A stretch of 64,000 bases of DNA from Candidatus Marinacidobacterales bacterium (GTDB lineage Bacteria > Acidobacteriota > Vicinamibacteria > Marinacidobacterales > DATDRI01), in assembly GCA_965219415.1 (NCBI GenBank), contig CBDCNP010000002.1:3168001-3232000 (forward strand), in the 5' to 3' direction. A program made the translations under genes and the position numbers. Shown here in pieces: positions 361 to 57,238 of the stretch; position 1 is the stretch's first letter; each line of letters opens with the position of its first letter. The notes below the pieces were generated by a model. The model saw only the letters and a list, made by a program, of their open reading frames with translations, was not told the origin of the DNA and searched no databases.

Positions 361-367
361 TCGATGC

Positions 368-1980: not shown

Positions 1981-1991
1981 GGAGCCACGGA

Positions 1992-2604: not shown

Positions 2605-2658
2605 GAAAAGGAGAATAGCCAGCGACACGCGTTTCTCCATCGTTTCCTGAGGGACGGT

Positions 2659-2982
2659 CTACGGTGCAAACATCGCACTCAATACATTCAGAATCGACTC
2701 ACACGTTTTCCGCTCTAGCCGACCGAGTTTTCTGACTAACCGACTGCCATCCACGGTGCGAATCTGGTCCAGCACGACTTGGCCGGCCTTCCCTTTGAAG
2801 CGGCACGGAACGCGCGTGGGGTAGCCTCGACTCTTGCTCGTCATGGGAGCGACGACGACCGTCCGGAAATGTCGGTTCATCTCATCGGGAGAAACGACGA
2901 CGCACGGTCTCGCCTTCCGGATCTCGGCGCCAATCGTTGGAGCTAGGCTGACCAAAAAGATGTCGCAGCGATTGATCACCAT
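2659..2982 (-). CDS. mazF: PemK/MazF endoribonuclease toxin
   Basis: GAEIRKARPCVVVS, VVVAPMTS, DQIRTVD; start taken as MVINR at 2982. Confidence 0.92.
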   Translation of the reverse strand: MVINRCDIFLVSLAPTIGAEIRKARPCVVVSPDEMNRHFRTVVVAPMTSKSRGYPTRVPCRFKGKAGQVVLDQIRTVDGSRLVRKLGRLERKTCESILNVLSAMFAP

Positions 2983-3230
2983 TCCCACTCTTCTTCGTCC
3001 CATCGGGTAGGCGGAAGCGAACCGGCGTCCAGTAGCGCGTCGTCACCTAGGCGGGCCATTTCCTGAAATGCTGCCTCCCAACCTTCCCGCACCGGCCTCG
3101 CGGGGCGTATAACGAGCGAGTCGTCTTGAACGAAGATCTCCACCTGCTTGCTCAACCCGGTCTGCTCGATGAGGACCTTGGGGATACGGATTCCCTGAGA
3201 GTTGCCGATACGGACTATTTGCCCTTTCAC
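2976..3230 (-). CDS. mazE: AbrB/MazE antitoxin
   Basis: IVRIGNSQGIRIPK and C-terminal WDEEEWEW; likely GTG start at 3230 (ORF open to 3257). Confidence 0.9.
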   Translation of the reverse strand: MKGQIVRIGNSQGIRIPKVLIEQTGLSKQVEIFVQDDSLVIRPARPVREGWEAAFQEMARLGDDALLDAGSLPPTRWDEEEWEW

Positions 3231-3255
3231 CGAGGCCCCTTTTTTGCGACGAGTC

Positions 3256-3294
3256 ATGTGATTACATTGTAATCACATACGATTACCGGGTCAA
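3256..3294 (-). promoter_or_regulatory. mazEF promoter with palindromic operator centred on the -10
   Basis: TTGACC-17 bp-TACAAT on the minus strand; atgtgattaca-t-tgtaatcacat at 3256-3278. Confidence 0.8.
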
Positions 3295-3371
3295 CTGAGA
3301 CCCCAGCACCCGCTTTCCTCAAGAGACGAAAAAAGGAAGGGAGAGCCACCCGGACGGGGCGCTTTCTGAAT

Positions 3372-4614
3372 CTAGCGGAAGCTCCGGCCCAGAGAAAAAA
3401 CGAACCGCGCCGATCCGTCGTCGCCAATCGCGATCACCGCCGCCACCAGCCCGACGCCGGTCTCCATGAGCAGCCCAGCGCTATAGCTGCTCCGTACGTC
3501 CGCGTCATCGAAGTCGTCGAACGCACTCCCGAACTCCACCAGTCCTGTCACATAAACCGCTGCGCCGACGAAATCAGGAAGCCGAGAGATCTGCTTCAAA
3601 TAGGCCACACTCCCGAGAAGGAATTTATCTCCGCGCGGTGCGCTTGCCAGTCTTCCTCGCCGAGCGCCAGCTTCATCAGCTCGGATGCATGCGCCGCCGC
3701 GGCTACCGCACCTAGGTCAGCAATCGCGTCGCTCTTTCGCCAATCGGTGGCGCCGATGTTTTGAAGATCCGGTCGGATGATGATGTCCGCGTCGTCCAAT
3801 CCGTGAGTGGAGCCGTGCTGGATCATGATCGTGAGAGATTGCGAGGCTTGCTCCAGGACAGAGCGAAGCTCGTCGCGGCTCTTCAAGGCCTCGCCGACAT
3901 CCACCGCGATCACGAAATCGGCACCCATTGCGCGCACGATGTCGCCCGGGACATTATTTAGTAGACCACCGTCGACTAAGAGTCGCCCTTGCCAGTCTTA
4001 CGGGCGCGAACACGCCAGGGATTGCCATGGTGGCTCGCATCGCGAGACCGAGAGAGCCGTGGTCGAGCGTCACCAGCTCACCCTCCTCCAAATCAGTCGC
4101 CATGCAGCGAAACGGGATGCGGAGCTCATCGAAGCTCGGAAGTGACGAATAGGGCAGACCGATCCGACTCAGCATCAGTCCGACAAAGTGCCTGGAGTCT
4201 AGGCTGCTCGGTAAGCTGAATCCGTGTCGCAGGCCGAGCTCGAGCTTCACTTGATACTGGCGGCGGTCTTGTTTGCGGCGGAACTCCTTGAGCGAATACG
4301 GTGCCTCGCCGGAGAACACGAGATCCCAGTCCGCATTGTGCAAAAGCTCGCGAATGTCCGAGGCGGTCATGCCGGTTGCGTAGCTGCCGCCGACGAGTCC
4401 TCCCATACTGGTGCCCGCGATGTAGTCGACGGGGATGCGGTTCTCCTCGAGCCATTCGAGGACCCCGACGTGGGCGATGCCGCGGGCGCTCCCGCCTCCG
4501 AGGGCAAGCCCGATGCGGGGGCGTGGTGTGTCTTCCTGGGCGCTGGCGATTCCGCAGACGAGTAGCAATAGCGCGGAGGCCAACCAGCGGGGCGGTGCGG
4601 GTGAAAGCGTCCAT
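3372..4614 (-). pseudogene. Patatin phospholipase fused to an Omp85-like barrel (PlpD-like), frameshifted and internally deleted
   Basis: GGGSARG, GTSMG and DGG motifs split across frames; final segment ends ARFVFSLGRSFR (beta-signal-like); POTRA and most of the barrel absent. Confidence 0.75.
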
Positions 4615-4782
4615 GAGTGAGCGCGACATACTACCGGGAAACCGCGAAAAAAACCAGCCGGCGCGGCAGAGTCGTCGGAATATTCCCTTTGTTTACAGCA
4701 AGATAGGACCCAAAACCCGGGGTCGGGAAGGCAAAAATTTCTCTTAACCTACCGATAGATATGTCTTATGGACGATCGAAAC

Positions 4783-4811
4783 TTGACAAACAGTTCACTT
4801 TCACCTAACTT
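4783..4811 (+). promoter_or_regulatory. Sigma70-like promoter of the HNH gene
   Basis: TTGACA(4783)-17 bp-TAACTT(4806); GGAGGT RBS at 4861 before ATG 4874. Confidence 0.6.
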
Positions 4812-4873
4812 ACACAAAGCAGGCCGAGTTGAGAAGTTTCGGCCAAAAACCTTTGGTGCTGGAGGTGCCTCCT

Positions 4874-6114
4874 ATGAACGCAACTTTAAATGCGACTTTG
4901 ACGCAAGATTCGACAGAGGTCGGGTTGGTTCGCCCGACCTCGAACTTTCCATCGAAGAGCTCGATCTCAAACTCGAACGTATCGTCCGAGTACACGAGGG
5001 ATCGGAGAGGCTCATTTGCGAATACCTGGTTGCCATGCGCGAGGCGACGCGGGTACGAGAAATTCGGTTTCGTGGACGTTTATTACATGCGGAAGAACGC
5101 TTCGGCTTTTCTCCGCGTAAGACCCGTTACCTTCTCCAGCTAGGTCAAAACCTCGAGAAACTCCCGCAGCTCAAGAAGGCACTGGAAGAAGGTAAGCTCG
5201 GATGGACCAAGGCGAGCCGGGTGGCCCGGGTAGCAACGAGCGAGGACGAAGCGATGTGGCTCGACTCGGCGCTATCTCTTTCCGTACGCGAGCTCGATCG
5301 TAAGATCGAGGGAGAAAGGGACGCGGCCGAGGTCAAGGTCCGTGCCTGGCTGACGGAAGATCAAGCGGCGGTGTTCGACCATGCCGTCGAAACCTGTCGT
5401 CGCGTCGCGGGTGAGGATCTGGACATCGGACGGTGCCTGGAGTTCATGGCGGCCGAGCTTATCGCGACGTACGCGCACTTGGGGCAACGGGAGGAGGAGC
5501 ATGACGAGGAGAACGACTGCTCTGAACAGCCGGCCCTGTCAGACGAAGAAAGCGCAGCGGTGGAGCAGCACATCTGTCCGGAAGGCGACGAGCTTCCTTG
5601 GCCGATCGTCCAGAACTACGGCAAGACCTGGAACGAAGTGTTGGAGAGAGATGACTACCGTTGCCAGTACCCTGACTGCGGCGCTCGCGCGCAGCTACAC
5701 GTGCATCACATCAGGTTCCGGAGCCGCAGCGGACGAAAGAGTCGCGCCGAAAGCAACTCGCCGCCGAATCTGATCTCAATTTGCGTTTTTCATCATCGCA
5801 GTATTCACGCCGCGACGATCGGGGTGAAAGGTCGGGCGCCCTCGGAGCTCGAGTGGCGTCGGCCGGCGCTGATGGAGAAGGTGCTGCAGAGGAGCTATGG
5901 CGTGTGTGCCGAGTCCGGTGGCGAACTCGCTCGAGAGCCGGGTCCGGTTTACTTGGTCAACGGGCGCGGCCGGCGACCGGCTGCCAGCGTCAAAGTGCGG
6001 TGTCTCACGATTCAACTTCGCAAGACACCAGTTTGGAAAACGTTTTCCAAATCCGAATCTGGGTCAAAAAGTAACAATCACCATACGCTCACGTTGGGAT
6101 CGTCGCGCACGTAG
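4874..6114 (+). CDS. DUF222-like helical domain + HNH endonuclease (apparent small frameshifts near 4945 and 5040-5090; stop position uncertain)
   Basis: LEKLPQLKKALEEGKLGWTKA helical motif; VLERDDYRCQYPDC..LHVHHI..N..NLISICVFHHRSIH HNH/Zn motif. Confidence 0.8.
6032..6076. repeat. Dispersed element terminus, copy 1 (20-bp palindrome + 17 bp + AAGTAACA)
   Basis: tttggaaaac|gttttccaaa; the reverse complement of 6033-6076 aligns ungapped to 40672-40715 (34/44 by hand). Confidence 0.7.
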
Positions 6115-6703
6115 AAGCGCAAAGGTTTTTTCGCCCACTGCCGCGCGTAGGCCACACCGATGCGAGTGGCGGTGACGATGCGTCCTTCGGGTATGGATTT
6201 CCCTCGCTCGACGTAGAGCTCCTTGCCGTCGACGAGATATCCAGCCGGCCGAGCTTGCCGTCGATGCGGAGCGCCTGTGTGAGCTTGGCAGGTCCCGAGC
6301 AGAGGTCGGTGTCCTTCAAGCGATTGCGTGAGACCTTGCCGCCTCGATGGCGTCGCATGACCTCGACCCCGTCCAGCGGCTCGAGTGCGCGGATCAGACA
6401 AGCCGTGGGTTGACCCTCCCTCTCAGCGACGACGTTCAAGAGCCAATGCATGCCGTAAGTGAAATAGACGTACGCGTGGCCCGCGTCCATCCACATCGTT
6501 TCGGTGCGCTTGGTGCGCCGACCTCCGAAGCTGTGCGCCGCCCGGTCCGGAATGCCAAGGTAGGCTTCGGTCTCGACGATGAGACCTGCGAGCTGCACTC
6601 CATTCCCGAGCTGGCGCACCAGCTTTTTCCCGAGGAGCGCCCGAGCTAGCGTCACCGGGTCGCGCCGGAAAAATCTACGTTTGAGTGGAGTAGGGCGTCC
6701 CAT
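6078..6703 (-). CDS. mpg: DNA-3-methyladenine glycosylase (MPG family), frameshift near 6245
   Basis: IVETEAY, YVYFTYGMH, LIRALEP, SGPAKL; C-terminus RIGVAYA..KPLRFY in the adjacent frame. Confidence 0.9.
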
Positions 6704-9765: not shown

Positions 9766-11283
9766 CTATTGCCTTACGCTGACATTCCACAAATCCATCA
9801 TTTCATCACTAGGGGCCACAAAGCCGACCACGTTCTCGGAAACGGCATAGATCCCTCTTACGTTGTAGAGGAACAGATAAATTGCGTCCTCATGGACGAT
9901 TTTGCGGATTTCGTAGGCCGCTTCACTTCTCTTGCCTGTATCCATCGTGGCCTTGGTTCTTTTGACCGTCTCCCACAACGCTTGGTCCGGACTGAAGCAG
10001 AGAAGGGAGCTCGGATCCAGCTCGTTTAGAGAGTGCGAGATGTCCCAATCCCTTGAGGCCATCCCAATGAGGTAGATTCCCTCGAATTCGCGAGCGATGA
10101 GCTTACTGATGTAAGTGCCGCTCTCCATTACATGAACTTTGGTGTCGATCCCTGCCTTGGAAAGTTGGTCCGCAACCGCCAGGATCACTTGTCTGTCCAT
10201 CGGGTATCGGCCGTTCGGGGTGTAGAGGTTCAACGGAAACCCGTTCGAATAGCCGGCCTCCCTTAGAAGGGCTCGCGCCTTCGCGAGATCATAAGGGTAC
10301 GGTTCTAACAGCGGGCCACTGCGCTCGGCGATCCGTAGAGGCACGTGTGTTCCGAGAGGCGTGCCCATCCCGCCCAGCACGCCCTCGACGATCGCCTCCT
10401 TGTCGACGGCGTAGTTGAGGGCCTGGCGTACGCGTTTGTCCCGCAGCGCGGCGACGTTGGTGGTGTCCATGATGATGTGCATCGCCCGTAGACTCTCGAC
10501 CGATTGAACATCGATTTCGTCATTGTCTTCGAGCGTAGCCACCATAAAGGGTGGCACATCGGTGATGATGTCCACGCCCCCGGTCTGCAACTCCGCGACC
10601 CGGGTCCCCATTTCCGGGATGATGCGAAAGACCAGCGCCTCGACTTTGGGGGGAGGGAGGTACCAGTCGGAAACCGCAGTCAGCGTCAAGCGGTCGTTGG
10701 GTTCCCAGGAAACGAACTGGAAGGGGCCGGTTCCGACGGCATGATGCCGAACGCCCTGTTTTTCGTTTTCTTCGAAGGTCTCTTTCGAGACTATCCCCAC
10801 GAAGGCTGCCAGCACATTGGGTAGGAGCGGATCCGGGATTTTCGTCTTGACATCAATGGTGTGGTTATCAACGATATCTATCGTATCGTAGCTGGCGAAG
10901 TAGGATCCAAAGTTCCACCTGTTTCGCGCATCCAATAACCACTCGAGCGTGAACTTGACGTCGGCCGCGGTAAAGGGATAGCCGTTGTGAAACTTCACTC
11001 CCTGCCGAAGATGGAAACGCCAGGTCCTGTCGTCGAGCGACTCCCAGGAAACCGCCAGGCGCGGGTTGATCTTACCGTCGGGGCCGAAGTGAACGAGGCT
11101 GTCGTAAATATGCCGCTGCATCATGACGCCGGTAACGTTCAATGCCAGTAGCGGAGACAGGCCCTTCATGTCGGTGGTCACCGCGACGGTCAGGGCCTGC
11201 TCGGGTTGTGGTGATCCACGCCAGAAGACAGCGAGGCCAATGAGGATGAGGAGGGAAAGTGCGGCGAGTCGCTTCATCGTCAC
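9766..11283 (-). CDS. ABC substrate-binding protein, family 5
   Basis: LRQGVKFHNG, GTGPF, VRQALNYAVD. Confidence 0.93.
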   Translation of the reverse strand: MTMKRLAALSLLILIGLAVFWRGSPQPEQALTVAVTTDMKGLSPLLALNVTGVMMQRHIYDSLVHFGPDGKINPRLAVSWESLDDRTWRFHLRQGVKFHNGYPFTAADVKFTLEWLLDARNRWNFGSYFASYDTIDIVDNHTIDVKTKIPDPLLPNVLAAFVGIVSKETFEENEKQGVRHHAVGTGPFQFVSWEPNDRLTLTAVSDWYLPPPKVEALVFRIIPEMGTRVAELQTGGVDIITDVPPFMVATLEDNDEIDVQSVESLRAMHIIMDTTNVAALRDKRVRQALNYAVDKEAIVEGVLGGMGTPLGTHVPLRIAERSGPLLEPYPYDLAKARALLREAGYSNGFPLNLYTPNGRYPMDRQVILAVADQLSKAGIDTKVHVMESGTYISKLIAREFEGIYLIGMASRDWDISHSLNELDPSSLLCFSPDQALWETVKRTKATMDTGKRSEAAYEIRKIVHEDAIYLFLYNVRGIYAVSENVVGFVAPSDEMMDLWNVSVRQ

Positions 11284-11314
11284 CGACGTCGTCGGAGATC
11301 TCTAGAAACTCTTC

Positions 11315-12184
11315 TCAAGAATCGAACATCCTCCGAATCGTCTGAAAGAGCTCGCTACTCTCGTCGCCGGTGGCGAGGGCGGTGACATCGTGCTCGCATC
11401 CTTCCAACAGCACGAGCTCCGCCTCTCCACCTCTCTCCTTCAACGTCCGAACGAATTCCTTGGATGATTTTACCCGTCCGGCCTTTTCTTCGAGAGAGCC
11501 GACGCCGACCACTGTCTTACGTGGGATGGTCTGGATATTCAAGATCGGGCTGGCCTCGCCCCGAAGCGCTGGGTCGGGAAGGTATTCGCGCACCCAGGTC
11601 GGGACCCGGAGGTCGTAGGACGTACTGACCGGCGCGCAGCCCTTGATCATGTCGGTCGGTAGGGACATCTGCTCGAGCCAGTCGGTTTTGACGCTAACGA
11701 ACGCAGAAAGATTGGCTCCCGACGAATGGCCGCCCACGTAGATTCGCTCAGGATCGCCCCCATGGGCGGCAATGTTCCGGGATACCCAGGCCAACGCGTG
11801 CCGCGCGTCATCATGTGCGTCGGGGTAACGAAAGCTGGGCGTGAGTCGATAGCCTGCTACGACTGTCAGGATGTTGTGATGAACGAACGGCGAGGCAACG
11901 AAACCGTACTCGGCGCGGTCTCCTTCCCGGAACCCACCACCATGAAAGAAGACGAAAACGGGCCATCCTGAAGTTTTTTCTTTTGGGGCGTACAGGTCGA
12001 GCCTCTGCTTGGGGTGGTCGCCATGAGGCCCATACGGTATGTCCAGCTCATTCGGTACGGACTCCCGAGTCGCGGTAGTTAGTTCATCCGCCTTCTCATA
12101 AAAAGCCTTCCAGTTGATGTGGAACTCTTCCGGGTGGGTGACGGTGTAATAGTTTGAGGAGGATGAGCCGTCGAAGTTTTTCAT
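11315..12184 (-). CDS. Alpha/beta hydrolase (arylformamidase/esterase-like)
   Basis: FHGGG oxyanion motif, GHSSG nucleophile elbow, C-terminal His. Confidence 0.85.
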   Translation of the reverse strand: MKNFDGSSSSNYYTVTHPEEFHINWKAFYEKADELTTATRESVPNELDIPYGPHGDHPKQRLDLYAPKEKTSGWPVFVFFHGGGFREGDRAEYGFVASPFVHHNILTVVAGYRLTPSFRYPDAHDDARHALAWVSRNIAAHGGDPERIYVGGHSSGANLSAFVSVKTDWLEQMSLPTDMIKGCAPVSTSYDLRVPTWVREYLPDPALRGEASPILNIQTIPRKTVVGVGSLEEKAGRVKSSKEFVRTLKERGGEAELVLLEGCEHDVTALATGDESSELFQTIRRMFDS

Positions 12185-12327
12185 GCGAGATTCTAAGTGG
12201 CCCAGGTTTCCGGGTCAACCGACAGGAGTACCGGATCGAAAATTTGACGGGAGATACGTCGCTGGTACACTCTGGGCCGCCGACGGGAATCCTGAAGCCG
12301 ACACCAAAGTAACGGGGGACGAACCCA

Positions 12328-13140
12328 ATGAGCAAGGAAAGTGACTTCGAGACGATTCGTCTCGACCGAGATGAGCGCGGGGTAGCGACAATCACCATGA
12401 ACCGACCCGCCGACGGTAACCCGATGGACGAAGCCTCGATTCGCGAGCTGACGCTCGTCGCCGAACGGCTCGGAGAAGACGACAGCGTGCGGGTCGTCGT
12501 CTTGACCGGGGAGGGGGAAGTCTTCTGTGCCGGCGGCAAGCCGGCCTTTCTCGAGAAGCTCAGAAATTTCAGCTTTGCGAAGAATCTCAGCCTAGGCGGG
12601 CAGCTCGACCGCTTGTACGCGACCCTCTCGGGGCTTCCCAAACCGCTGATCGGACGGATCAATGGTGACGCCATCGGGGGTGGAACCGGCATGACAACGA
12701 CGTGCGACATCGCCATTGCTGTCGAGGACGCTCGGTTTGGGTTCTCCGACGTTCGCGTTGGAATAGCACCCACCGTCGTGGCACCGTACTTCGTTCGGAA
12801 GGTCGGTCCCTCGTTCGCGCGCGCCGCCTTTATCAGCTGCGAAAAATTCTCCGCACGAAGAGCTAGCGAGATCGGACTGGTTCATCGGGTAGCTCCCAAG
12901 GCCGACCTCGACGCGGTGGTGGAGGAAACGATCGGTTCTTGTCTCATGGGAGCTCCGAGAGCAATGGCCGTTGCGAAGCGACTCCCGGACATCGTACAGC
13001 ATGGCTCGGAGTCTCTGAGGAAGGAATTGGTCGAGATCGTGGCGAGACTGCGGGAGACCGATGAAGGCCGGGAGGGACTGGCGGCGCTGATGGAGAAGCG
13101 AAAGCCCAGCTGGGTGGCAGGAGACAGAGGTGATGACTAA
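12328..13140 (+). CDS. Enoyl-CoA hydratase/isomerase (methylglutaconyl-CoA hydratase-like)
   Basis: FCAGG, GDAIGGG, EKRKPSW; TTGACG-17 bp-TACACT promoter upstream at about 12244. Confidence 0.88.
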   Translation: MSKESDFETIRLDRDERGVATITMNRPADGNPMDEASIRELTLVAERLGEDDSVRVVVLTGEGEVFCAGGKPAFLEKLRNFSFAKNLSLGGQLDRLYATLSGLPKPLIGRINGDAIGGGTGMTTTCDIAIAVEDARFGFSDVRVGIAPTVVAPYFVRKVGPSFARAAFISCEKFSARRASEIGLVHRVAPKADLDAVVEETIGSCLMGAPRAMAVAKRLPDIVQHGSESLRKELVEIVARLRETDEGREGLAALMEKRKPSWVAGDRGDD

Positions 13141-36483: not shown

Positions 36484-39131
36484 CTAAGTCTCGTCGTCGA
36501 GGGTGAGGAGCCAGATGTCGGCTTCCGAAGTTTCCATCGTGAAGTAGATGGTTCGGCCATCAGGAGTCGGTACAGGTACGCGTAGCTGGTTGGGCTTTAC
36601 CGAGAGCACTTCCTGCTGTTCCCCGGTTTGGCTGTCGATGAGAACGATTTCCTGTCGCGTGCGAAACAGGAGCTTATTTGTGTCGCCGACCCACTTAGGG
36701 CCGTTCCCGACATCACTCAGCTTCTTATACCGCTGCGACTCGAAGTCGTAAACGGCCACGCCGTCAAGCCTCCCCGAGGTTACAAGGTTGCCCGCCAAGC
36801 GACGGCCGTCCCTCGACCAGTCCCAAGGAAAAAACCCATCAGACTCATCGTCCAAAGGGGGCAACGCTTCCGGCTTCTGTTCAAGAAAGCTCGTGTCCAG
36901 TCGAAAGATGTGAGGCACAGACTGCGGGAAGAGTGTATAAGCCATCAATGATTCATCCGGCGACCACACTGGGACGTCCGCGTCATCGGTGGTATCGGTG
37001 AGCTCGCGGAGCCCGCTGCCGTCGGGGCGGACGGTCCAGATCTCATAGGTACCCGTGCGATCCGAATAGAACGCGATCCACTGACCATCGGGTGACCAGC
37101 GAGCGCCGCGGTCCCTAGCCAGGTCGTCCGTGAGCTGTCGACGCTCGCTTCCATCGGACCGCATCACGAAGAGGCCCTGTTGTTTGCTTCCCGTGCGCCC
37201 GGTGAGCCACTCGCCGTCGGGGGACGTATCGGTCACGAAGAAGCGATTAGATCCCCGCGTTACCGGGGCAGGGCTGCCCAGTGTTTCGCCGGTCGTAGGA
37301 TCGAAATCCACCTTGTGGATATTCGAAGCCACCGTCTGAGCCACGTAGGCTACTTTGCGGCCATCTCCGGACAGGCTCAGGTGTAGAGCTTCGGCGGCCA
37401 CACCGCTCGTGACCGGTTCCGGGTTGCCGAGAGCTTCGCCGGATTCCTCGCTGATGGCGACGCGCCATAAGTTTTGACTGCCCCCACGGTCACTCGAGAA
37501 GTAGAGGTATTTACCGTCCGGTGACCATACCGGGTTCCAGTCGAAGTAACCATCTTCGGTCACACGAACGGGCTCACCACCGTCTGCAGGTATCGTCCAG
37601 ATCTCGGCGCCTTCGAAGAGCGACCAGAAGGCGATGCGGTGACCGCGCGGAGACCAATGAGGCTAGCAGCATCGTCATCCGTGAGAAGCTTTTTTTCGCC
37701 GCTTGCAGTGTCGATGATCCAGAGCTCACTCGGAGTCCGATTGCGAGTGGTCAACGTCATGCCGGTCGCGCAGACGATCCGCTTTCCATCCGGCGCCCAA
37801 GCGGGGTTGTACCCGAAGTCGGCCGCTCGCTTCACCGATTCTCCGGTGCGTCCCATCACGAAAAGCCCACCACCGTCTCGCTCGGAGCGGAACAGGATCT
37901 GCTCCCCGTCCGGGGAGAAGGCGGGCTGTGTGTCGTCGGCCTCAACGCCCTCGGTGAGGTTGATGGCCCTCTCGCCGCCTACGCTCTGCAGATAGATGTC
38001 CCAATTCCCCGAGGTATCGCTGGCGTACACTACCCAGTTTCCGTCCGGCGAGAGGGTTGAAACAATTCTCGGGCGAGGTTCGTCGTGAGCTGGCTGAACC
38101 TGCCCGTAATACTTCTGTCCTTCTCGGACTGTCGATGCGGGATCGCCGGGTCTCAGGAAATACCCCACTAGAGCAGCCGCAATCGCCACCGCACCGACCG
38201 CGGCCCAGACGGTCCAGCTCTTTCGAGACGGGGCAGAGGCCTGCCCGGCCTTGAGCAGCACTCCTGAGTCAAGCTCCTGCTTGAGCTCGTCGAGCTCGTT
38301 CCTCAGATCTTTCGCCGATTGATAGCGGCGGTCGGGATCCTTTACCAGCGCGCGCTTCACGATCCGTGTGAGCTCCGGAGGGCAAGCAGGATTGAGCGTT
38401 CTCACCGACGTGGGAGTGTCGCGAAGAATCGCGGAGAGAAACGAGCCCGGCCCATCGCCTTTGAAGGGGCGCTCGCCGGCGAGCATTTCATAGAAGATGA
38501 TGCCGAGGGAGAAGATGTCCGTACGGTGATCGAGCTTCTTGCCTTCGGCTTGCTCGGGCGACATGCACGCCGCGGTTCCCACGATGCGACCCGCCTCGGT
38601 CATGGCTGCCGTAGGAAGCGCACTGTTGGAGGCGTCGCCCGCCTCCGGGCGCAGCTTGGCGAGGCCGAAGTCCAGGATCTTGAGCTGCCCCTCGTCGCTC
38701 ACCATGATGTTGTCGGGCTTCAGATCTCGATGGGTGATGCCGTGCCCGTGCGCGGAGCTCACCGCGTCCGCGACCGGGACCGGGACCGCGATCTCGAAGA
38801 ACCGCTTCAACCCCAGACCCTTCGACTCAATCAGGTCGGTGAGGGTTTTCCCGCGGACGAGCTCCATGGTGATGAAGTGGACGCCCTCCGATTCTTCGAT
38901 GGAGTGGATGGTGACGATGTTGGGGTGATTGAGCGCTGCGACCGCCTTCGCCTCGCGCTCGAACCGCTCTCGGCGCTGTGCGTTGCCCGCCATCTCCTCC
39001 GGCAACACTTTGATGGCGATCTCCCGGCCGAGCTTCGGATCCCGGGCCCGGTAAACTTCACCCATTCCACCCGCACCGAGTGCGGACAGGATCTCGTAGG
39101 AGCCCAGCTTCGTGCCGGGAGTCAAAGACAT
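36484..39131 (-). pseudogene. Hanks-type Ser/Thr kinase + TM + PD40 propeller, with several frameshifts
   Basis: GAGGMGEVY, AIK, HRDLKPDN, DFG, SPEQ; SPDG repeats continue in other frames; VPVPV duplication. Confidence 0.85.
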
Positions 39132-39151
39132 GGCTGGCCTTTTCTAGAGGC

Positions 39152-39182
39152 AAAATAGCCCGCCACGAAGCGAAAAGTCAAA
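39152..39182 (-). promoter_or_regulatory. Kinase promoter-like repeat, copy 1
   Basis: TTGACT-18 bp-TATTTT on the minus strand; 30/31 identical to 43115-43145. Confidence 0.65.
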
Positions 39183-39207
39183 ACGTTACGTGGCACGCAG
39201 ACTGCCG

Positions 39208-39621
39208 CTACGGCAGGAGGCGGAAAGCGTCGGAGTGTTTTGGCCGAATCGTACCAAAGTGCCGATGGTCGAGCGTGATGATGATATCGGTCTTGAAGCG
39301 TTCGGCCAGCGCGACGACCGAAGCGTCGGTTCCTCCCAGTCTCAATTTCTCGTAACGTTTTACAAGGTCGGCTACGCGTGACCACTCGGCGGGCATTGGC
39401 GCCTCCACGTCGAAGTTTTCGAGCCCGCGGAGAAAGGTCGCCTCCGCCCTCGCGCCCTCCCGTCGTCCTAATAGGTAAGTCACTTCGGCAACACACAACG
39501 CAGGGATGACCAGTTGGTATCGGGGAGACCGTAGTGCCGCGAGACAGGGCCGGTGTTGGGGGTCGGCGGTGTTTGCAGAGGCGATGAGCGGACCGCTATC
39601 CACGATCGCGATCGATATCAT
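39208..39621 (-). CDS. vapC: PIN-domain toxin (VapC family)
   Basis: IVDSG, VAEV, TDASVV, TLDHRHF. Confidence 0.9.
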   Translation of the reverse strand: MISIAIVDSGPLIASANTADPQHRPCLAALRSPRYQLVIPALCVAEVTYLLGRREGARAEATFLRGLENFDVEAPMPAEWSRVADLVKRYEKLRLGGTDASVVALAERFKTDIIITLDHRHFGTIRPKHSDAFRLLP

Positions 39622-39847
39622 CGCTCCATTCTCGTTCCAGCTCTTCGTCGATGTCCTTGCCGTGAACGAAACTGGGGTCGTTCACGATACCCGCCCACGG
39701 GATCTGGCGGGGTTGTTCCTCCGAGCCGACAAACGCCTGAGACAGGAGTTGGCGGATGACTTCAGAAACCGAGGCACGCTGGCGTTGAGCCTCGCGCTCG
39801 ACGAGCTCTGCAAGCTCATCCGAAAGTGTAATAGTGGTGCGCTTCAT
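39596..39847 (-). CDS. CopG/RHH antitoxin
   Basis: MKRTTITL...SVSEVIR; overlaps vapC. Confidence 0.88.
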   Translation of the reverse strand: MKRTTITLSDELAELVEREAQRQRASVSEVIRQLLSQAFVGSEEQPRQIPWAGIVNDPSFVHGKDIDEELEREWSDDIDRDRG

Positions 39848-40001
39848 ATACGCATACTAGCATAACAAGTCCAATCGTTCAAGCTCCAAGTAAGGCTTGG
39901 GAGAAGAGACGAAGCATCGGAGCGCAAGCCGCCCGCTAAATGCCAATTTTTCTTACGGTAATCGATTGGAACTCGTCAGAATATATGTGGTATATTTGAA
40001 C

Positions 40002-40226
40002 ATGCCGCAGCTACATCTGTATGTGCCAAGGGAGGTTGCAGCAGAATTGAAGCGTCGAGCCAAGGCCAAAGGGAAGACGGTCTCAGGTTTTCTAGGGGAG
40101 CTTGTTCAACGGGAGATCTCCGGCGCTTGGCCTGAAGGATTCTTTACGGACGTGGTCGGGGGTTGGGCCGGTGAGCCCTTGACGCGACCAGATGATTTGA
40201 AGCTCGAGGAAAGAGATGAGCTTTAG
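40002..40226 (+). CDS. RHH-type antitoxin
   Basis: MPQLHLYVP..LKRRAKAKGKTVS; abuts vapC; ATG 40002 just after TG-G-TATATT. Confidence 0.82.
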   Translation: MPQLHLYVPREVAAELKRRAKAKGKTVSGFLGELVQREISGAWPEGFFTDVVGGWAGEPLTRPDDLKLEERDEL

Positions 40227-40652
40227 ATGTACTTGCTCGATACCAACGCCTGTATCCGAGTCCTCAACGACAGTTCTCACCCTCTGGTGAGCCGACTGCG
40301 TCAACATCATCCTGCTGAAATACGCCTCTGCTCGGTGGTGAAAGGGGAGCTGGTTTATGGGGCCCGACGGAGCTCCCGTCCAGCCGAGAACCTCCGTCTC
40401 CTGAGCCGGTTCTTCGCTCCGTTCATTTCCTTACCCTTCGAAGATCGATGCGCCGACCACTACGGTGAAATTCGCCACGACCTTCAACGGGCGGGAACGC
40501 TCATAGGCCCTAACGATCTCATAGGCCCTAACGATCTTCTGATCGCTGCCACCGCGATCGGCCACGACGCCACGTTGATAACGCACAACACGCGGGAGTT
40601 TTCCCGTGTCGTGGGACTCGCCTTGGAGGATTGGGAGGAGCCGAGTAGCTAG
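40227..40652 (+). CDS. vapC: VapC PIN toxin with an in-frame 18-bp tandem duplication
   Basis: YLLDTN, GEL, IGPND twice, THNTREF. Confidence 0.9.
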   Translation: MYLLDTNACIRVLNDSSHPLVSRLRQHHPAEIRLCSVVKGELVYGARRSSRPAENLRLLSRFFAPFISLPFEDRCADHYGEIRHDLQRAGTLIGPNDLIGPNDLLIAATAIGHDATLITHNTREFSRVVGLALEDWEEPSS

Positions 40653-40671
40653 GGCTGGGCGACGTTGGACG

Positions 40672-40785
40672 TGTTACTTATCTTCACAAATCCCGAATTG
40701 GCAAACGTTTTCCAAGATTATGTTAAATTCACCGTTTCGAATGTACCCACTTAACTCGGTCTGGAACGAGTAACCAAAAGTAACA
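40672..40785. mobile_element. Putative non-autonomous (MITE-like) 114-bp element with TGTTACTT/AAGTAACA termini
   Basis: 8-bp terminal inverted repeats; left part matches inverted 6033-6076, right part matches 43161-43235; no target duplication. Confidence 0.5.
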
Positions 40786-40852
40786 ACTGATAGATCTGGG
40801 GCAGAGCTTCCGGGACTAAACCCGCGGGAGGGTGTTATCCTAGTGAAAACCC

Positions 40853-41751
40853 GTGTTTTCCAAATTACTGAGGGACCAGTCCGGCAGGATGGTCGAGCCT
40901 CAATTATTTGTCGCGATCATGGGCATTGCAGCCGCGATCATCGTTCCCCAACTGTTGGCGCGAGGGGAAGCGCGAGATCAGGATCTCTCGGCACAATGTA
41001 TCAAGAACCTCTTTCTCATCAAGGAAGGGGCTGACCCCTCGGCTCTTGCTTGCCCGATCTCGGAGCTGGCTTACACGCCCGAGACCCGCGATGGGGTCCG
41101 AGTCCTATCCTGCGCGGATCCGGGGAACCATCTGCGTTTCGACCTAAGCCTCGTCGAGCGCGGCGAGTCATGGGAATTGCACTCCGGGCTCCCCGAGCAC
41201 CCCCACCGCCCGGTGGGGTTGTCGAAATAGAGGGGGCTCGTACCTTCTTCGAATATCGGCCGGAAGAGGTCACCATCGTAAACTCACCACCGCCGCCGCT
41301 GGAGCGTTACCTTTTCACCCCCCTCATCGTCGTAGTCCTCTTCTTTGTGTTCCTGATGCCCGCCAAATGGATTGGGTCCGCCCTTTTATCAGATTTTTCA
41401 GAAAACACACTTGGCCAATCGCTCGTCTTGTTTGTAATCTTTCTGCTACTCCTAGCACCCGGTACCATCCTTATCGCGTGGACGATCCACGGCGCCATCC
41501 ACCGCGACGAGATCGTCCTCTCCCGCGAAGATAAATCTTTGAGCATTCAAGTCTACGATCTGGGCAGGGCTTTCAGAGAAGCCGAGCCCATTCCGTCGGT
41601 GCGCGGAGTGTTTCCGGTTTTCGGAGACGACCGCTACCGCGTCGTTGCCATTTACGAAGACCAGGGGCAGATGCGACACCGGACGCTCTTCAAGTCGTCT
41701 GGATCCGGCTGGGAGGTCTCTTCCCTATTGAATCAACTCTTTGCCCTTTAA
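40853..41751 (+). CDS. Prepilin-like N-terminus fused to a membrane domain, probable frameshift near 41205
   Basis: LRDQSG then hydrophobic helix ending AIIVP, AQCIKNL; two TM helices in the next frame. Confidence 0.55.
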
Positions 41752-43041
41752 GTCTCGTCGTCGAGGGTGAGGAGCCAGATGTCGGCTTCGGTAGTCTCTA
41801 TCGTGAAGTAGATTGTTTGGCCGTCGGGAGTGATGCTGCAGTCCAGAACACGATGTGGTTTTACCGAAAGCAGCTCCCGGCGATCCTTGGTCCGGCTATC
41901 GATGAGCTCGATCGTCGTCGCGGTCCACGCCAGCCATGAATCCGTATCGGCAACCCAGTCGAAGGGTCTTCCATCGTCGCTCAGCCTTTCGTAGCGTTGA
42001 GACTCGAAGTCATAGGTGACGACACCGCGGCCAAACTTGCCAGCAAGGACGCGATCCCCGGCCAAGCGACGACCGTCCCCCGACCAGCTTCTGACGAAGA
42101 GCCTCTCGTTGCTGTCATCCAGAGGTGGTAAGGGTTGCGGTTCCTGCTCGCTCCAGTCCGTGTCGACGCGGAAAACGTAAGGCTGTACCTCTGGAAAGAG
42201 TGTGTAAGCCATGAGTGATCCATCGCGCGACCACACCGGTAGGTTCGCGTCTCCACTCGTTTGGGTCAGCTGTCGCATTCCACTGCCGTCGGGATGGATG
42301 GTCCAGATCTGCCCCGCCTCGGTCTTGGTCACTGTAGGGGCGTCACTCCCCACCACTTTCCTACGTCCTTGTCCCAGGATGGCGAGGCCGAAGTCGAGGA
42401 TTTTGAGCTGGCCTTTGTCGCTCACCATGAGATTGTCGGGTTTTAGGTCGCGGTGGGTGATGCCTTGCTCGTGGGCGGAGCTCACCGCGTCGGCCAGGGG
42501 AATCGCAATCTCGAAGAACTGCTTCAAGGGAAGGCCCTTGTGCGCAATCAACTCGGATAGATTCCGGCCCCGGACGAGCTGCATGGTGATGAAGGGCGTA
42601 CCCTGGTCTTCCTCGATCGAGTGAACGGTCACGATGTTGGGATGATCGAGGGCGGCGAGCGCCTTGGCCTCACGCTCGAACCTTCCAAACCGCTCGTGAT
42701 TCTCGGTCAGTTCGTCCGGGCTTGATAGCGATCTCCCGGTCGAGCTTCGTGTCTCGCGCGCGGTAGACCTCGCCCATGCCTCCCGCACCGAGGAGGTCGA
42801 CGAGTTGGTAGTGGCCGAGCTCGGTTCCGGGGGCTAGGCTCATACGATTCGCCGCGGGCGGATGCCCAAGGAAGCTATTTGCCTCGGCCGCGTCATGATT
42901 TTTGAGAAGTTCTTCGACCTGCTCTCTTAACGCATCCTCTCCCGAGCAGGCTTGGTCCAAGAAACCGGGCCGCCTCTCAGGAGGGAGACTGAGCGCCGTC
43001 TCAAATAGCTCTGCGATGCGATCCCAAGAGTCCGGCATCAA
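41748..43041 (-). pseudogene. Ser/Thr kinase-PD40 paralog, frameshifted, with a large internal deletion
   Basis: WDRIAELF N-terminus, GAGGMGEVY, HRDLKPDN, DFG, then TKTEAG joined directly to QIWT; same EADIWLLTLDDET end as the 36484 copy. Confidence 0.85.
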
Positions 43042-43114
43042 GTGACTTGCATCTTGATCCCTGACAATGAGGGAGCTGTCTTACGCGTTATGAAACTCAC
43101 CGTACCCTTGGTGA

Positions 43115-43145
43115 AAAATAGCCCGGCACGAAGCGAAAAGTCAAA
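43115..43145 (-). promoter_or_regulatory. Kinase promoter-like repeat, copy 2
   Basis: aaaatagcccggcacgaagcgaaaagtcaaa. Confidence 0.65.
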
Positions 43146-43160
43146 GCGCAGTGCGGAGGC

Positions 43161-43235
43161 AAACTACGGTAGATTCGCTGTTTCGAATCTGCCCAGATTA
43201 CTGGGGCCGGACCCAGTAACCAAAAGTAACAACTG
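43161..43235. repeat. Dispersed element, partial copy with two hairpins
   Basis: Ungapped match to 40715-40789, including an identical 21-mer agtaaccaaaagtaacaactg. Confidence 0.75.
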
Positions 43236-51635: not shown

Positions 51636-51717
51636 CCGCAACGTAGTGTCGTGTCTTGCGGGGCTCCGCTGGAGTCTGCTATCGTCGATTCATCTGAATC
51701 GAAAAGGAGCCCTCAAA

Positions 51718-52732
51718 TTGGCTGCCAACGACGACAAAGCCATAGCGGCGGAGTATCGAGAGAAGAAACCCCTCTATGAGCGACTGTGCCGAGAGGTGGT
51801 CGTCAACCTCGAGGAGCTGGTCAAAGAGAGCGGAATCGCTTTGGAGGTGCCCCTCGAGTCGCGGGTCAAGTCGCTCAATTCGGTTCTAACCAAAGCGAAG
51901 CGTATGGGGCCGGCACTGTCGAGTCTCACCGACATGCACGATCTTGCGGGAGTGCGCCTGGTGGTCATGTTCAAACGGGATGCCGAACGCGTTTGTGAGC
52001 TCATCGGGGAAACCTTCGACGTGATCAAAAGAAGAGAACACCGAGGACCGCCTTTCCGCGGACCAATTCGGGTACGGGTCGATTCACATCGAAGTAAAGC
52101 CACACGAGACATGGTTGTTTCTACCGACCTGGAAGAACCTGGGGAACATGCCCACCGAGATCCAGATCCGAACCGCGACGCAACACATCTGGGCCGGAGC
52201 GTCCCACCTGTTGCAGTACAAATGGAAGAAGCATGTTCCGGTGCCGGTGCGCCGCGCCATCAACCGGGTCGCCGCGCTTCTCGAGCTGGTCGATCTGGAG
52301 TTCGAGCGCGTCCTGATGCGACGGGAGGAGTATCGGACTCATCTCACGGAAATCGGGCTGGATGAGCCCCTCAACACCGAGCTCCTACGTGGCATCTTCG
52401 AACGGTTTCTGCCCGCTGAGAACGCGGACGATGAAGAGCCTTTGGCGGAGCTCGTCGACCAGCTGAGTGCTTTCGGAGTCACAAAGGAACGCGACCTCGT
52501 CGGGCTACTCGAAAAGCACCAAGAAGCGATGAATAGGGCGGAGGCCCTGGCGGTTAAGGACATCAAGCGGAACGGGAGCAAATCGGAGTACCGGTTCGAC
52601 CCCGAGCGGCTCGCGCGGAGTGTCTTCTTGACTCATGTCGGACTCGTACAAGAGGCCCTTTCGAGGGAATTGGGAGCCAAGTTCGACGATTACATACGAT
52701 CGGGCGGGGGTGCTCTAACGAGTGGCGCCTAG
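51718..52732 (+). CDS. RelA/SpoT-domain small alarmone synthetase, frameshift in the A-run near 52030
   Basis: RVKS, DLAGVR, FGYGSIH, EIQIRT, WA..SH..QYK; AAAGGAG RBS before TTG. Confidence 0.85.
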
Positions 52733-53953: not shown

Positions 53954-54955
53954 CTAACGCAACAGCAGCGGCAGTACACTACTCTCGAACGGCGAAATGA
54001 CCGCCGTCCAGACCACAAACACGGCAAGGATGCTGAAGAGCGCGACTCGCGCCAGCTTCTGCCGCGGGCTACTCTCGACCCGGGCAAGCTCCAGCAGACG
54101 ATCCCATGGAATCCAAAACGCATAAGTCAGAAAAAATGTGCGGAAGGTGGCCCTCATGGTGACCGCGAATCCTACCTGCATGAAGAAGAGGCACGGGAGG
54201 ATCACGATCCGGGCACGACGGCTGAAGAGCGTGAGCGGGGAGAGAAGCTCGAGAGCCAGGGCGCCAATGGACAGCACCTGACCGAGGAATACATGGCCGG
54301 CCAGCCAGTGAGAAAGAGGGCCCAAATCGATGACCTGCACGGTGAGGGCGAGGTTATCCGACAGAAACCACTCGGGCCCGCCCAGGCGAAGCTTCGCAAT
54401 GCCACCGGCGAAGAAGACGGACACGAACACCAACTGCATCAATCGCACCGGCCAGGCGTAGGTCCCGCGCGCCACTTCTTTAGAGACGTAGTCGGTGCGG
54501 CTTCGCAGTCGTCTCACCAGCCTGTCGAGCGAGAAAGCGTCTCCACAGCGGGACATCGCGAAAATACCGAACATGATGAAGAAGTGCCCTTCCGCTGGCT
54601 CGACGAAACCGAAAGATTGACGCATTCCGAAAAGATAGAGTCCGCTGAGAAAAGTGACGGCGAAGGCGGCCCGCGAGAAGAGGCCGATGAACCCAAGGGT
54701 CAAGGCAACAAAGAAAATGCGCTGGAGCGACTGAACGAACGGGGTCGACGGTATGTCGATTCCGAGCGCATGTATGAGCGGAACCGGCAACCAGAATGCG
54801 TCGGAGACTTGGAGCCAATGCGAGAAATCCCAGGACAGGTGAGACCAGAGGAACAGACCCGACACCAGCGCCCGTGTGAGCCCCAGGTTCTCGGGCCCCC
54901 ACGGTTGGAACCAGAGCTGGTTCCAGACTCTACGGATCCTCGTTGACATTGTCAT
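53954..54955 (-). CDS. HTTM-domain membrane protein, copy 1
   Basis: WNQLWF, GLFSR, FSLD, WPVRLMQ, FFAGGIAKL...W. Confidence 0.8.
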   Translation of the reverse strand: MTMSTRIRRVWNQLWFQPWGPENLGLTRALVSGLFLWSHLSWDFSHWLQVSDAFWLPVPLIHALGIDIPSTPFVQSLQRIFFVALTLGFIGLFSRAAFAVTFLSGLYLFGMRQSFGFVEPAEGHFFIMFGIFAMSRCGDAFSLDRLVRRLRSRTDYVSKEVARGTYAWPVRLMQLVFVSVFFAGGIAKLRLGGPEWFLSDNLALTVQVIDLGPLSHWLAGHVFLGQVLSIGALALELLSPLTLFSRRARIVILPCLFFMQVGFAVTMRATFRTFFLTYAFWIPWDRLLELARVESSPRQKLARVALFSILAVFVVWTAVISPFESSVLPLLLR

Positions 54956-55514
54956 TGGGTACGACCTCGAAAATGAGCTCGCGGTGGGGGAGTGAGGGTG
55001 CACGGGTCATCGCGTCGGTCAAGGAGAGGGTGGCAGGATCCGAGAAATCCCGCTTCATAAGGTAGAGCCTCATCCCAACCAGAGAGGGTTCGTCGGCCAT
55101 TCGGTTCTGGTTGTATCGATCCTTGATGTTGAGCAAGGCTTTGCGTACCAAGAGCTCGTTGGCTTTGGCTCTCGCCCTCAGATCGGCGACACCGGGCTTC
55201 GCCGGCCCTCCCGCAAACATGGATCCCGACCGTCGATTCCCCAGCATCTTGTTGAACGCCATCATCATCGAGACTGGGTACTGGGGTGTCACGTGCCTTG
55301 ACTCCACGACGTGCTCTTTGCCATCGCCGTCAACACCGACTGGGAACAGAGCGAGGTGTGCCGCCACGTCCCCCCTCGACCAGTAGGTGGACCAAGAGCT
55401 CACCGTATGAGCAAACATCGGATAGTTGTTGAAGGGCCAGGGCTTCGCGTCGAGACCGATTGCAGTGAGGATGCTCGCTAGAACGATCAGGATGGTCGCG
55501 TTCGCCTGCCACAT
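54930..55514 (-). CDS. HTTM partner protein, copy 1
   Basis: N-terminal TM, WPFNNYPMF motif; paralog of 56535..57110. Confidence 0.75.
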   Translation of the reverse strand: MWQANATILIVLASILTAIGLDAKPWPFNNYPMFAHTVSSWSTYWSRGDVAAHLALFPVGVDGDGKEHVVESRHVTPQYPVSMMMAFNKMLGNRRSGSMFAGGPAKPGVADLRARAKANELLVRKALLNIKDRYNQNRMADEPSLVGMRLYLMKRDFSDPATLSLTDAMTRAPSLPHRELIFEVVPNDNVNEDP

Positions 55515-55542
55515 GACTCGTTTATACCTTATCCGACGAGGA

Positions 55543-56538
55543 TCAACGCAACACCCAGGGAAGAACCGCCGTCCAGCCCACGAACGTGGCTAACAGGAGG
55601 GCGAGTACAAGCCGGGCCAGCGTCCTACGCCTCGGCCGCCCGCCGCGAGCCATGTCGAGGAGGCGATCCCAGGGAATCCAAAACGCGTAGGTCAGAAAAA
55701 ACGTCTGAAAGAGTGCGCGCATCGTCACCGCGAAGCCTATCTGGAGTAGCAACAAGCACGGAACGATCACGATGCTGGCACGCCGACTGAAAAAAGCGAC
55801 GACGGAGAGTAGCTCGAGCGTCACCGCCCCTGCGCCGAGGATTTGGCCGATGAGTACTTTCCCGGCGATCCAGTGTGAGAGCGGCCCCAGGTCGATGACC
55901 TGAACGGTGAGTGCGAGGTTGTCCGAGAAGATCCAGTCGAGGCCGCCCAGACGCATTTTCCCGACGCCACTCGCGAAGAACACCGATACGAAGAGAAATT
56001 GCATGAGACGCACCGGCCAGGAGTAGCTTCCCCGCTGCACCTCCTCGGCAACGTGGTTGGGTCCGCCTCGCATCCGCCGGATCAAGCTATCGATGGAAAA
56101 CGCGTCCCCGCACCGCGACATGGCAAAGATGCCGAACATGATGATGAAGTGTCCTTCCGCGGGAGCGATGGAGCCGAACGATTGGCGCACGCCGAAGACA
56201 TAGAGCCAAGTGAAGCACGAGATCGCGAAGGCGGTTCGCGTAAACAAGCCGACAAATCCGAGTGTCAGCGAGACGAGGAAAATGCGCTGCAGGAGCCTAA
56301 TGGCGGAAGCCGAGGGGATGTCGAGCCCGAGCGCGCGAAAGAGAGGGATCGGTATCCAGAACGCGTCGGAAACTTCCGTCCAAACGGAGAGATCCCACGA
56401 TAGATGAGACCAGAGAAAGAGGCCCGACACCAGCATTCTAGAGAGGCCCAGATTTTCGGGCCCCCAGGGCTGGAACCAGAGGTTGTTCCAGACCCTGGTC
56501 AACGAGCTCAGACGCCGGGTGAGGGCTCGACTCATCAT
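55543..56538 (-). CDS. HTTM-domain membrane protein, copy 2
   Basis: Collinear with copy 1; FFASGVGKM...W. Confidence 0.8.
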   Translation of the reverse strand: MMSRALTRRLSSLTRVWNNLWFQPWGPENLGLSRMLVSGLFLWSHLSWDLSVWTEVSDAFWIPIPLFRALGLDIPSASAIRLLQRIFLVSLTLGFVGLFTRTAFAISCFTWLYVFGVRQSFGSIAPAEGHFIIMFGIFAMSRCGDAFSIDSLIRRMRGGPNHVAEEVQRGSYSWPVRLMQFLFVSVFFASGVGKMRLGGLDWIFSDNLALTVQVIDLGPLSHWIAGKVLIGQILGAGAVTLELLSVVAFFSRRASIVIVPCLLLLQIGFAVTMRALFQTFFLTYAFWIPWDRLLDMARGGRPRRRTLARLVLALLLATFVGWTAVLPWVLR

Positions 56539-57110
56539 CGAGATGGATCCGGCATGACCTCGAAGATCAGTACACGGTGGGGAAGTGTTGGCCCGCGCTC
56601 CACCGCATCACTCAAGGAGAGCGTTTCGGGGTTCGAGTAGTCGCGCTTCATGAGATAGAGCCTCATCCCGATCATGGGAGGCTCCTCTGGCGGGCGACGC
56701 CGGTTGTAGCGTTCCTTCAGGTCGAGGAGGGCCTTGCGTAGGATGGCCTCCCGCTCGGTGGCCCTTGCCCTGAGGTCGGCCACGCCGGGCTCCGCCGGCG
56801 AGCCTGGAAAGATAGATCCTTGCCAATTCCCCAACATCTTGTTGAAAGCCATCATGGTCCCGACCGTGTGGTGGGGTGACAGATGCCGCGGTTCTAAGGC
56901 GTGCTCTCGCTGAGGTTCTTCGCCGTCGACCCCGAGTGGGATCAGGGCAAGATGGGCGGCGACATCCCCTCGCGCCCAGTAGACGGGCCACGACCGGACG
57001 GTGTGAGCAAACATGGGATAGTTGTTGAAGGGCCACGGCTTCGTGTCGAGGCCGATGGCGGTGAGGACGCCGGCGAGGACGAACAGGATGGTCGTGTTCG
57101 CGCGCCACAT
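56535..57110 (-). CDS. HTTM partner protein, copy 2
   Basis: MWRANTT start; WPFNNYPMF; overlaps the HTTM start. Confidence 0.75.
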   Translation of the reverse strand: MWRANTTILFVLAGVLTAIGLDTKPWPFNNYPMFAHTVRSWPVYWARGDVAAHLALIPLGVDGEEPQREHALEPRHLSPHHTVGTMMAFNKMLGNWQGSIFPGSPAEPGVADLRARATEREAILRKALLDLKERYNRRRPPEEPPMIGMRLYLMKRDYSNPETLSLSDAVERGPTLPHRVLIFEVMPDPSR

Positions 57111-57136
57111 GCCTGAGAAGCTCTTGTTCCCTTTTT

Positions 57137-57238
57137 CCCTCTCCCCTCTGGGGAGAAGGCCAGGCGTCAACTAGATGTCGAGCTCATGATGGACGCCAAA
57201 ACAGCGTGTAGCTATCAATCAACGTAGCCAGTGAGGGG
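57137..57238. repeat. REP-like palindromic unit interrupted by a 63-bp insert
   Basis: ccctctcccctctggggagaaggccag ... gccagtgagggg; gccag direct repeats at 57159 and 57227. Confidence 0.4.

Follow-up and report, generated by a model that had tools for sequence, protein, structure and literature searches.

A 114-bp stretch with inverted ends in a Marinacidobacterales genome: a probable chance junction of an HNH-module edge and a putative kinase operator

At positions 40672-40785 of the window, by which we mean the whole stretch of 64,000 nucleotides under analysis, lie 114 bp of non-coding DNA with 8-bp inverted ends. Is this one small element, or are these two sites that happen to meet? A sequence-only reading of the locus proposed an internally deleted, non-autonomous copy of one unannotated mobile or structured-RNA element, whose halves recur separately elsewhere as lone ends. 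Its coordinates and counts for the stretch proved exact. The halves do recur apart from each other, and the termini are real, being present in other genomes too: TGTTAC occurs once and GTAACA three times in the window, and these are exactly the four termini.

The left 44 bp from 40672 align without gaps to the reverse complement of 6033-6076 at 34 of 44 positions (next-best match in the window, 24/44), and 40735-40789 aligns without gaps to 43181-43235 at 45 of 55 (next-best, 27/55). Shuffled queries peak at 28/44 and 33/55, with 0 of 150 reaching the observed score in either case. Among random real segments of each length, 5 of 200 reach it, and these presumably lie in the window's paralogous genes. 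The first match was thus upheld as claimed, while the second was right in its numbers and too short in its extent, the true homology running from 40712 or 40719 to 40789. Also as claimed, three of the four termini lie within about 20 bp of a converging stop codon. The distances are 12 nt for the ABC permease, 19 nt for vapC and, for MPG, either 1 nt in an alternative frame or 12 nt if the frameshifted ORF is taken. The inverted ends are weak evidence alone, since an 8-bp inverted repeat at 80-150 bp spacing occurs at 133 of 63,800 window positions.

We consider it fairly probable that the 114 bp are a chance junction of two sites, here called L and R. L is the edge of an HNH module and a putative site of the HNH protein, and R probably an operator of the kinase genes. 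The sites are as follows.

40672-40785, no strand: the 114-bp stretch, an L site and an R site back to back
40672-40716, minus strand: orphan L, without an HNH gene; palindrome at 40697-40716, spacer, GTAACA ending at 40672
40712-40789, plus strand: R copy 1; inner imperfect palindrome at 40752-40773, GTAAC at 40770 and 40780
6032-6076, plus strand: L site at the HNH gene 3′ end; perfect 20-bp palindrome at 6032-6051
43165-43235, plus strand: R copy 2 (B), upstream of the kinase 2 promoter; two hairpin-capable palindromes

If L and R were instead the left and right ends of one TGT..ACA transposon (IS21-, IS481-, Tn7- or Mu-like), the 114 bp would be its MITE and the other sites lone ends. IS21, IS481, Tn7 and Mu are elements with TGT..ACA ends, and all arms here end in GTA(A/G)CA at a sharp edge. 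Arms with GTAACA stand head to head twice, in the window and at 1426-3307 of L001 (loci of relatives are numbered from L001), which a chance junction does not predict. Moreover, a 2.8-kb kinase-TPR gene at L001 11292-14106 is absent from the window at 6077-6083, where the junction falls within 7 nt of the L terminus and alters the last MPG codons. However, the sequence-only reading had itself seen no transposase and no target duplication, and rightly so. Duplications of 2-12 bp are absent at 40672/40785, and no transposase was found among 112 window frames (66 ORFs and 46 further frames covering the gaps), the one weak IstB-like score among the gap frames falling on an ABC ATPase. The arms match at 8/8 positions and then at only 9/22 beyond the first 8 bp. 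In the 1.34 Mb searched, about 0.31 Mb of it from close relatives, one full L+R copy was counted, and between the paired arms in L001 lies an IS1182-family element. That locus is also the one in five, among close loci with more than 5 kb upstream of L, at which R occurs, there as its own inverted pair split by the IS1182-family element. L follows HNH genes and R never does (0 of 4 arms), which speaks against their being two ends of one DDE element, and in a distant clade the HNH modules have the palindrome without the GTAACA tail.

An empty site without the whole element was not seen in the comparison with the paralogous kinase locus (41749-43235). That locus keeps R and lacks L together with 1.5 kb, so that gain or loss concerned 39204-40711 and not the 114-bp stretch. 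A DNA search of plasmids, phages and E. coli gave chance-level matches to plasmids and phages only and none to E. coli; a plasmid protein search gave nothing above chance. On the features tested, the 114 bp are not a member of the DDE-MITE class, a transposon ending in L and R is quite improbable, and the stretch itself is probably a one-off relic. What survives of the mobile-element proposal is that the L half is sharp-edged like an element end and is part of a repeated module without annotation.

L is the right edge of this discrete, old, repeated module. Here 'module' refers to leader, HNH gene and site together, about 1.55 kb, found in many different gene contexts in Vicinamibacteria. Its parts in the window, apart from the site, are two.

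4620-4873, plus strand: conserved HNH-module leader with an A-tract, a pair of 25-bp dyads, sigma-70-like -35 at 4783 and -10 at 4806 (by eye)
4874-6114, plus strand: DUF222-like/HNH gene; predicted ParB-type DNA-binding domain, strand-helix-helix, HNH nuclease; reads through L

Among the matching stretches used, two to three copies were seen in each of five genomes. Paralogues within a genome align over about 1.55 kb, from the A-rich leader to just past the palindrome, in differing contexts, and as their identity is at most about 88%, there is no sign of recent movement. In most HNH leaders of L001-L013, two 25-bp dyads with a 17-bp core (window 4690-4770) precede the -35 by eye; we take them to resemble paired IHF sites. 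The window gene is frameshifted relative to its homologues (ORF 4768-6114). Frameshifts are frequent in the window's ORFs (for example 4768-6114, 6089-6703, 36484-39131, 41748-43041 and 51646-52732) and may be assembly indels or gene decay. Incidentally, a tandem duplication of two ORFs (70% over 1.55 kb) without a Pfam or NCBIfam match lies at 53954-57170.

The L site spans 45 bp: a 20-bp palindrome, a 19-bp spacer and GTAACA. Pairwise identity among eight copies is 0.87 in the palindrome, 0.60 in the spacer, 0.87 in the last 6 bp, and 0.31 and 0.24 in the flanks. The orphan retains both conserved parts. A leave-one-out matrix from which the 40672 copy was withheld gives it 45.3 bits, and in 1.34 Mb no match of 8 bits or more lies away from HNH 3′ sites. 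The full site, with the tail GTA(A/G)CA, is found 3′ of the gene in the window, L001, L002 (twice), L003, L004 and L007, and the palindrome only in L006. A 12-bp core pattern, written after the sites were seen, has 19 matches in 1,341,902 bp, at 15 of the 16 closest HNH copies, at the orphan and at three places elsewhere. These 16 copies (the window and L001-L015) represent 10 genomes of one class, are partly orthologous and are not independent; the best 80 of 319 matching stretches were used. L014 lacks the core, the 3′ end of its HNH gene having been replaced, and in L013 an insertion shifted the core 2 kb away. In L013, too, an integrase-core transposase (11092-12947; family by eye) splits the HNH module.

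The gene reads through its site, and the L motif can also be followed in translation. It occurs, in any of three frames, in 23 of 101 C-terminal tails of homologues (109 HNH homologues, 8 without a recognisable HNH end being left out) and in none of 33,155 control residues of the same proteins, while R translations are absent from HNH tails (best local score 36). A search with the L-encoded tail returned one near-identical protein. Sites can be doubled: L002 has two in tandem 50 nt apart (11223-11317), and proteins P0023, P0024 and P0031 have tandem L in their tails about 105-120 nt apart, the shorter-spacer variant first. An apparent homology past ACA was dropped, as the common tail is the antisense end of the converging kinase-TPR gene (L001; L007 by eye).

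A distant clade (32-48% identity) has a related palindrome about 150-230 nt past the stop codon, without the GTAACA tail. No shared motif emerged de novo from the sequence 3′ of 64 HNH loci at greater distance. In L005, L008-L012 and L015, the HNH stop codon is followed by about 150-230 nt of conserved pyrimidine-rich non-coding DNA before the palindrome.

Could L act as RNA or as a single-strand hairpin, either a terminator or a 3′ non-coding RNA of the HNH gene? The regions around both A and B have stronger folds than shuffles do (z -3.3 and -4.05), the latter being the plus-strand value of R copy 2. Runs of A and T border four distant-clade palindromes, as they do in bidirectional terminators, and the distant clade retains its 150-230 nt of non-coding DNA before the site. 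On the other hand, the half-sites of L vary without significant covariation (111 of 500 shuffles), as expected of a protein site on duplex DNA. Consensus folding of the distant-clade 3′ region brings no covariation gain, and the T-run is absent after the other 11 of 15 sites by eye. The 114 bp themselves have no stable fold beyond shuffles (z -0.82 and -0.35). Rfam gave no match in the window or in three loci, and a further search gave four matches at E >5, none of them in the 114 bp; a tRNA scan found nothing above chance. The structured-RNA half of the earlier proposal was thus not supported, and a hairpin role of L is very unlikely.

A protein that might bind L as duplex DNA is encoded beside it. 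We modelled the intact L001 orthologue, the window copy being frameshifted (pLDDT 81; domain model 92). The top four VIA-align matches of both models are Spo0J, KorB, ParB-parS and KorB-operator, at Z 6.5-8.0, the best having Z 8.0, rmsd 2.5 and 91 aligned residues, and that of the domain model Z 7.2, rmsd 3.0 and 92 aligned. A Z of 7-8 is common for unrelated folds and typical of models without a clear relative, so the weight lies in the agreement of ranks. Foldseek also puts Spo0J/Noc/ParB at or near the top, with no match at E <0.1, and a sequence search of solved structures found no ParB and only weak HNH matches. Residues 155-198 of the L001 protein form a strand-helix-helix that looks ribbon-helix-helix-like by eye. 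No N-terminal CTPase (ParBc) domain is matched by Pfam in 74 family members, and the model has only coiled helix before the domain. Of these members, 25 match DUF222 weakly (best E 2.7e-5) and 58 match HNH.

Homodimer prediction scored 0.69, against 0.00 for the best of three controls. Of 30 proteins whose solved structures are pairs, 20 attained this mark, as did 1 of 23 whose structures are single chains, and the dimer runs had a contact agreement of at least 69% and pLDDT of at least 74. The models thus predict that the HNH protein carries a ParB/KorB-type DNA-binding fold and dimerises. According to passages of PMC7383237, ParB-family domains bind palindromes with two-fold symmetry. As far as the models go, L is most likely the binding site of its own HNH protein. 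Outer site bases co-occur with a residue before the RKT motif in L008, L010 and L013, a pattern given no weight here because all three come from one genome. The related protein family has 8,936 representatives at E up to 1e-10; PADLOC matched none of four proteins, and PHROGs returned a generic HNH and two unnamed families.

R has a different company, the two paralogous kinase modules that stand 1 kb apart.

36484-39203, minus strand: kinase module 1, a Ser/Thr kinase-PD40 gene in two ORFs; promoter at 39152-39185
41748-43164, minus strand: kinase module 2, its paralogue in two ORFs; promoter at 43115-43148
368-391, no strand: lone palindrome like the R inner core; orthologue at L001 6132

Homology between the modules extends from the kinase stop codon (36485/41749) to 40789/43235, with DNA identities of 73-90% in gene segments, 94% in the promoter and 79% in R (over 71 nt against 43165-43235, the alignment beginning near 40712). 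R is common to both modules and as diverged as their remainder; it was copied along with the kinase gene. R-type sequence occurs at four places, every one of them a kinase-PD40 locus (in the case of R copy 1, only as it was before the insertion described below), and the L001 6132 palindrome adjoins a -10-like box upstream of a kinase gene. Window 1-391 is a kinase-PD40 remnant, its 5′ part apparently deleted at the 368-391 palindrome. Two ORFs without a family match lie at 40853-41751, between R and kinase 2, the first with a prepilin-like hydrophobic start by eye; a spurious ORF over B returned no match in a protein search.

The L001 arms fit this company. Two GTAACA-ended R arms stand head to head around an IS1182-family gene (L001 1426-3307), and the element (DUF772, DDE_Tnp_1_6; 1445-3276) has inner inverted repeats of its own and an apparent 3-bp duplication. 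Palindromes are the targets of the IS1182 family, which can remove a part of them, according to PMC5678879 and PMC4923244. For that reason the L001 arms probably once formed a palindrome of the host, about 46 bp long and 47 nt away from a kinase stop codon. The inner repeats of the enclosed transposase and the targets of its family count against a transposon with L and R as its ends.

We regard R as probably a host operator of the kinase genes. If both sites were operators of host regulators, L LacI-like and R OmpR-like, the HNH protein would not bind L and the composite would regulate the gene at 40853. The R arm repeats GTAAC at a 10-bp period and has a 14-nt identity with DNA upstream of E. 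coli ompF, a segment that we take to be the OmpR F1 site; R-type palindromes adjoin kinase promoters. The orphan L has kept both conserved parts, and near-clade L resembles, in our estimate, LacI-family operators. However, the ompF match was chosen post hoc, and no confirmation that it is an OmpR site was found in the literature. L is placed 3′ of its gene, in most cases with a converging stop codon facing it, and distant-clade sites vary at the central dinucleotide, which LacI operators keep. The operator reading of both sites is improbable.

How did the two halves meet? Modules 1 and 2 are alike up to about 39203 and again from about 40712, with about 1.5 kb extra in module 1 between promoter and R.

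39204-40711, no strand: insertion relative to the paralogous kinase locus; two toxin-antitoxin pairs, then L
39208-39621, minus strand: PIN toxin, in the insertion
39596-39847, minus strand: RHH antitoxin, in the insertion
39897-40226, plus strand: RHH antitoxin, in the insertion
40227-40652, plus strand: PIN toxin, in the insertion

Judged by this comparison of the two loci, the insertion of two toxin-antitoxin pairs and L joined the halves. Of 16 HNH modules, 7 adjoin a kinase gene (two of the seven on weak matches), against a 7% background, and in L008 and L013 an L site lies just upstream of a tandem kinase gene, in the same orientation as the orphan to kinase 1. In the preferred history, an HNH module would once have lain in tandem with kinase 1, on its upstream side, an arrangement seen in L008 and L013; toxin-antitoxin pairs would have been gained and the HNH gene deleted, leaving L against R. 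We infer an ancestral HNH gene beside the orphan L on this basis. The GTAACA end would be common to L and R by chance, giving the 8-bp inverted ends; that the chance-junction reading does not explain this shared end counts against it. A second toxin-antitoxin islet at 1871-3371, without L, is a counter-point to the composite history. That islet also has two pairs (FitA-like/PIN and MazEF), is absent from L001, and has a 23-bp palindrome (3256-3278) before mazE.

Junctions cluster at the palindrome, after it in L006 and just before it in L007 and at the orphan. In the preferred mechanism, the HNH protein would dimerise, bind the loop-less palindrome as double-stranded DNA via its ParB-type helix-turn-helix domains, and nick or cut beside it. 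Cutting there would explain the module edges and deletion junctions at that place. The junctions fit cutting beside a bound site and also fit selection trimming to a functional edge, which would explain the nearby stop codons as well. From sequence and models we infer binding, cleavage and mobility of the HNH module.

The setting is that of a Ca. Marinacidobacterales chromosome (Marinacidobacterales being an order of Vicinamibacteria): the window is syntenic with L001 over about 13 kb at 82-89% identity. L007 has other elements, two near-identical IS630-like copies (2617-3731 and 11296-12410) whose repeats also contain GTAACA and an IS66-like element (4211-6230), both families being assigned by eye.

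A further possibility, which we hold tentatively and think rather unlikely, is that the ParB-HTH/HNH module mobilises itself, as an element of a kind not yet described, with the GTAACA-ended R as a second end used in trans. The dimer would load on the palindrome at the module's own end and nick beside it to start copying, and R ends in trans would move kinase genes and toxin-antitoxin pairs. Such a module would lack terminal repeats, target duplication and any gene of the DDE, HUH or recombinase type.

Many bacteria carry DUF222-type HNH genes in several copies, and no substrate or means of spread was found described for them. The locus offers candidates for the site and for the DNA-binding fold and, in L001, a protein that is intact, with which binding and cleavage become directly testable. 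If the proposal holds, the HNH protein would be a ParB-type reader naturally fused to a nuclease, its 20-bp site being known; if the module should prove self-mobilising, the large size of the family means that this could explain the spread of DUF222-type HNH genes. In the literature on DUF222+HNH, REP13E12, ParB-like+HNH and the lineage, neither the site nor the domain pairing was found described, although a description of the site may lie in supplements.

Several known systems share features with the locus. DDE MITEs are alike in TGT..ACA termini and short non-coding size; here, however, target duplication and extended inverted repeat are absent, no cognate transposase was seen in the window and the halves assort separately. 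IS200/IS605, IS91 and Helitron are one-ended and duplication-free with a subterminal palindrome, and the likeness extends to its fixed distance from a terminal motif, the lack of target duplication and the nuclease gene inside, whereas here no HUH/Y1 transposase was seen and covariation gives no hairpin requirement. IscB was rejected, as its model covers the HNH part only (32.6 bits against a cut-off of 175) and the window has no Y1 match. An integron attC has an AAC box before a GTT box and a long bottom-strand hairpin; here the box order is reversed and no fold exceeds shuffles. A dif site has an XerC arm, a 6-bp spacer and an XerD arm. At the L/R junction, 40718-40728 is an 11-mer like the XerD arm of dif, the paralogue differs there, and dif/pdif was rejected because the XerC-like arm is absent by eye. 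A CRISPR repeat was rejected for want of an array (by eye); REP/BIME have a tetranucleotide foot and a RAYT transposase, and the one feature noted here in their connection is the 50-nt period of the tandem L copies in L002. R is like the tandem operators of the OmpR family in its direct repeat at a 10-bp period upstream of a promoter, and differs in an added overlapping 22-bp palindrome.

ParB/Spo0J-parS, Noc-NBS and KorB-operator are alike in the predicted DNA-binding fold, the predicted dimer and the loop-less palindrome (in passages of PMC7383237). Unlike these, the HNH protein has no CTPase domain that we could see and an HNH fused instead, and each gene copy has one or two sites next to its own 3′ end. 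DUF222/13E12-repeat HNH genes (PF02720 + PF01844) are alike in multiple copies, a helical N-terminal region and a C-terminal HNH, and differ in that the DUF222 matches here are all weak; neither a 3′ palindromic site nor a ParB-type fold was found described in the literature on DUF222-HNH proteins. The HNH module is best filed with the DUF222-type HNH repeats, as a variant.
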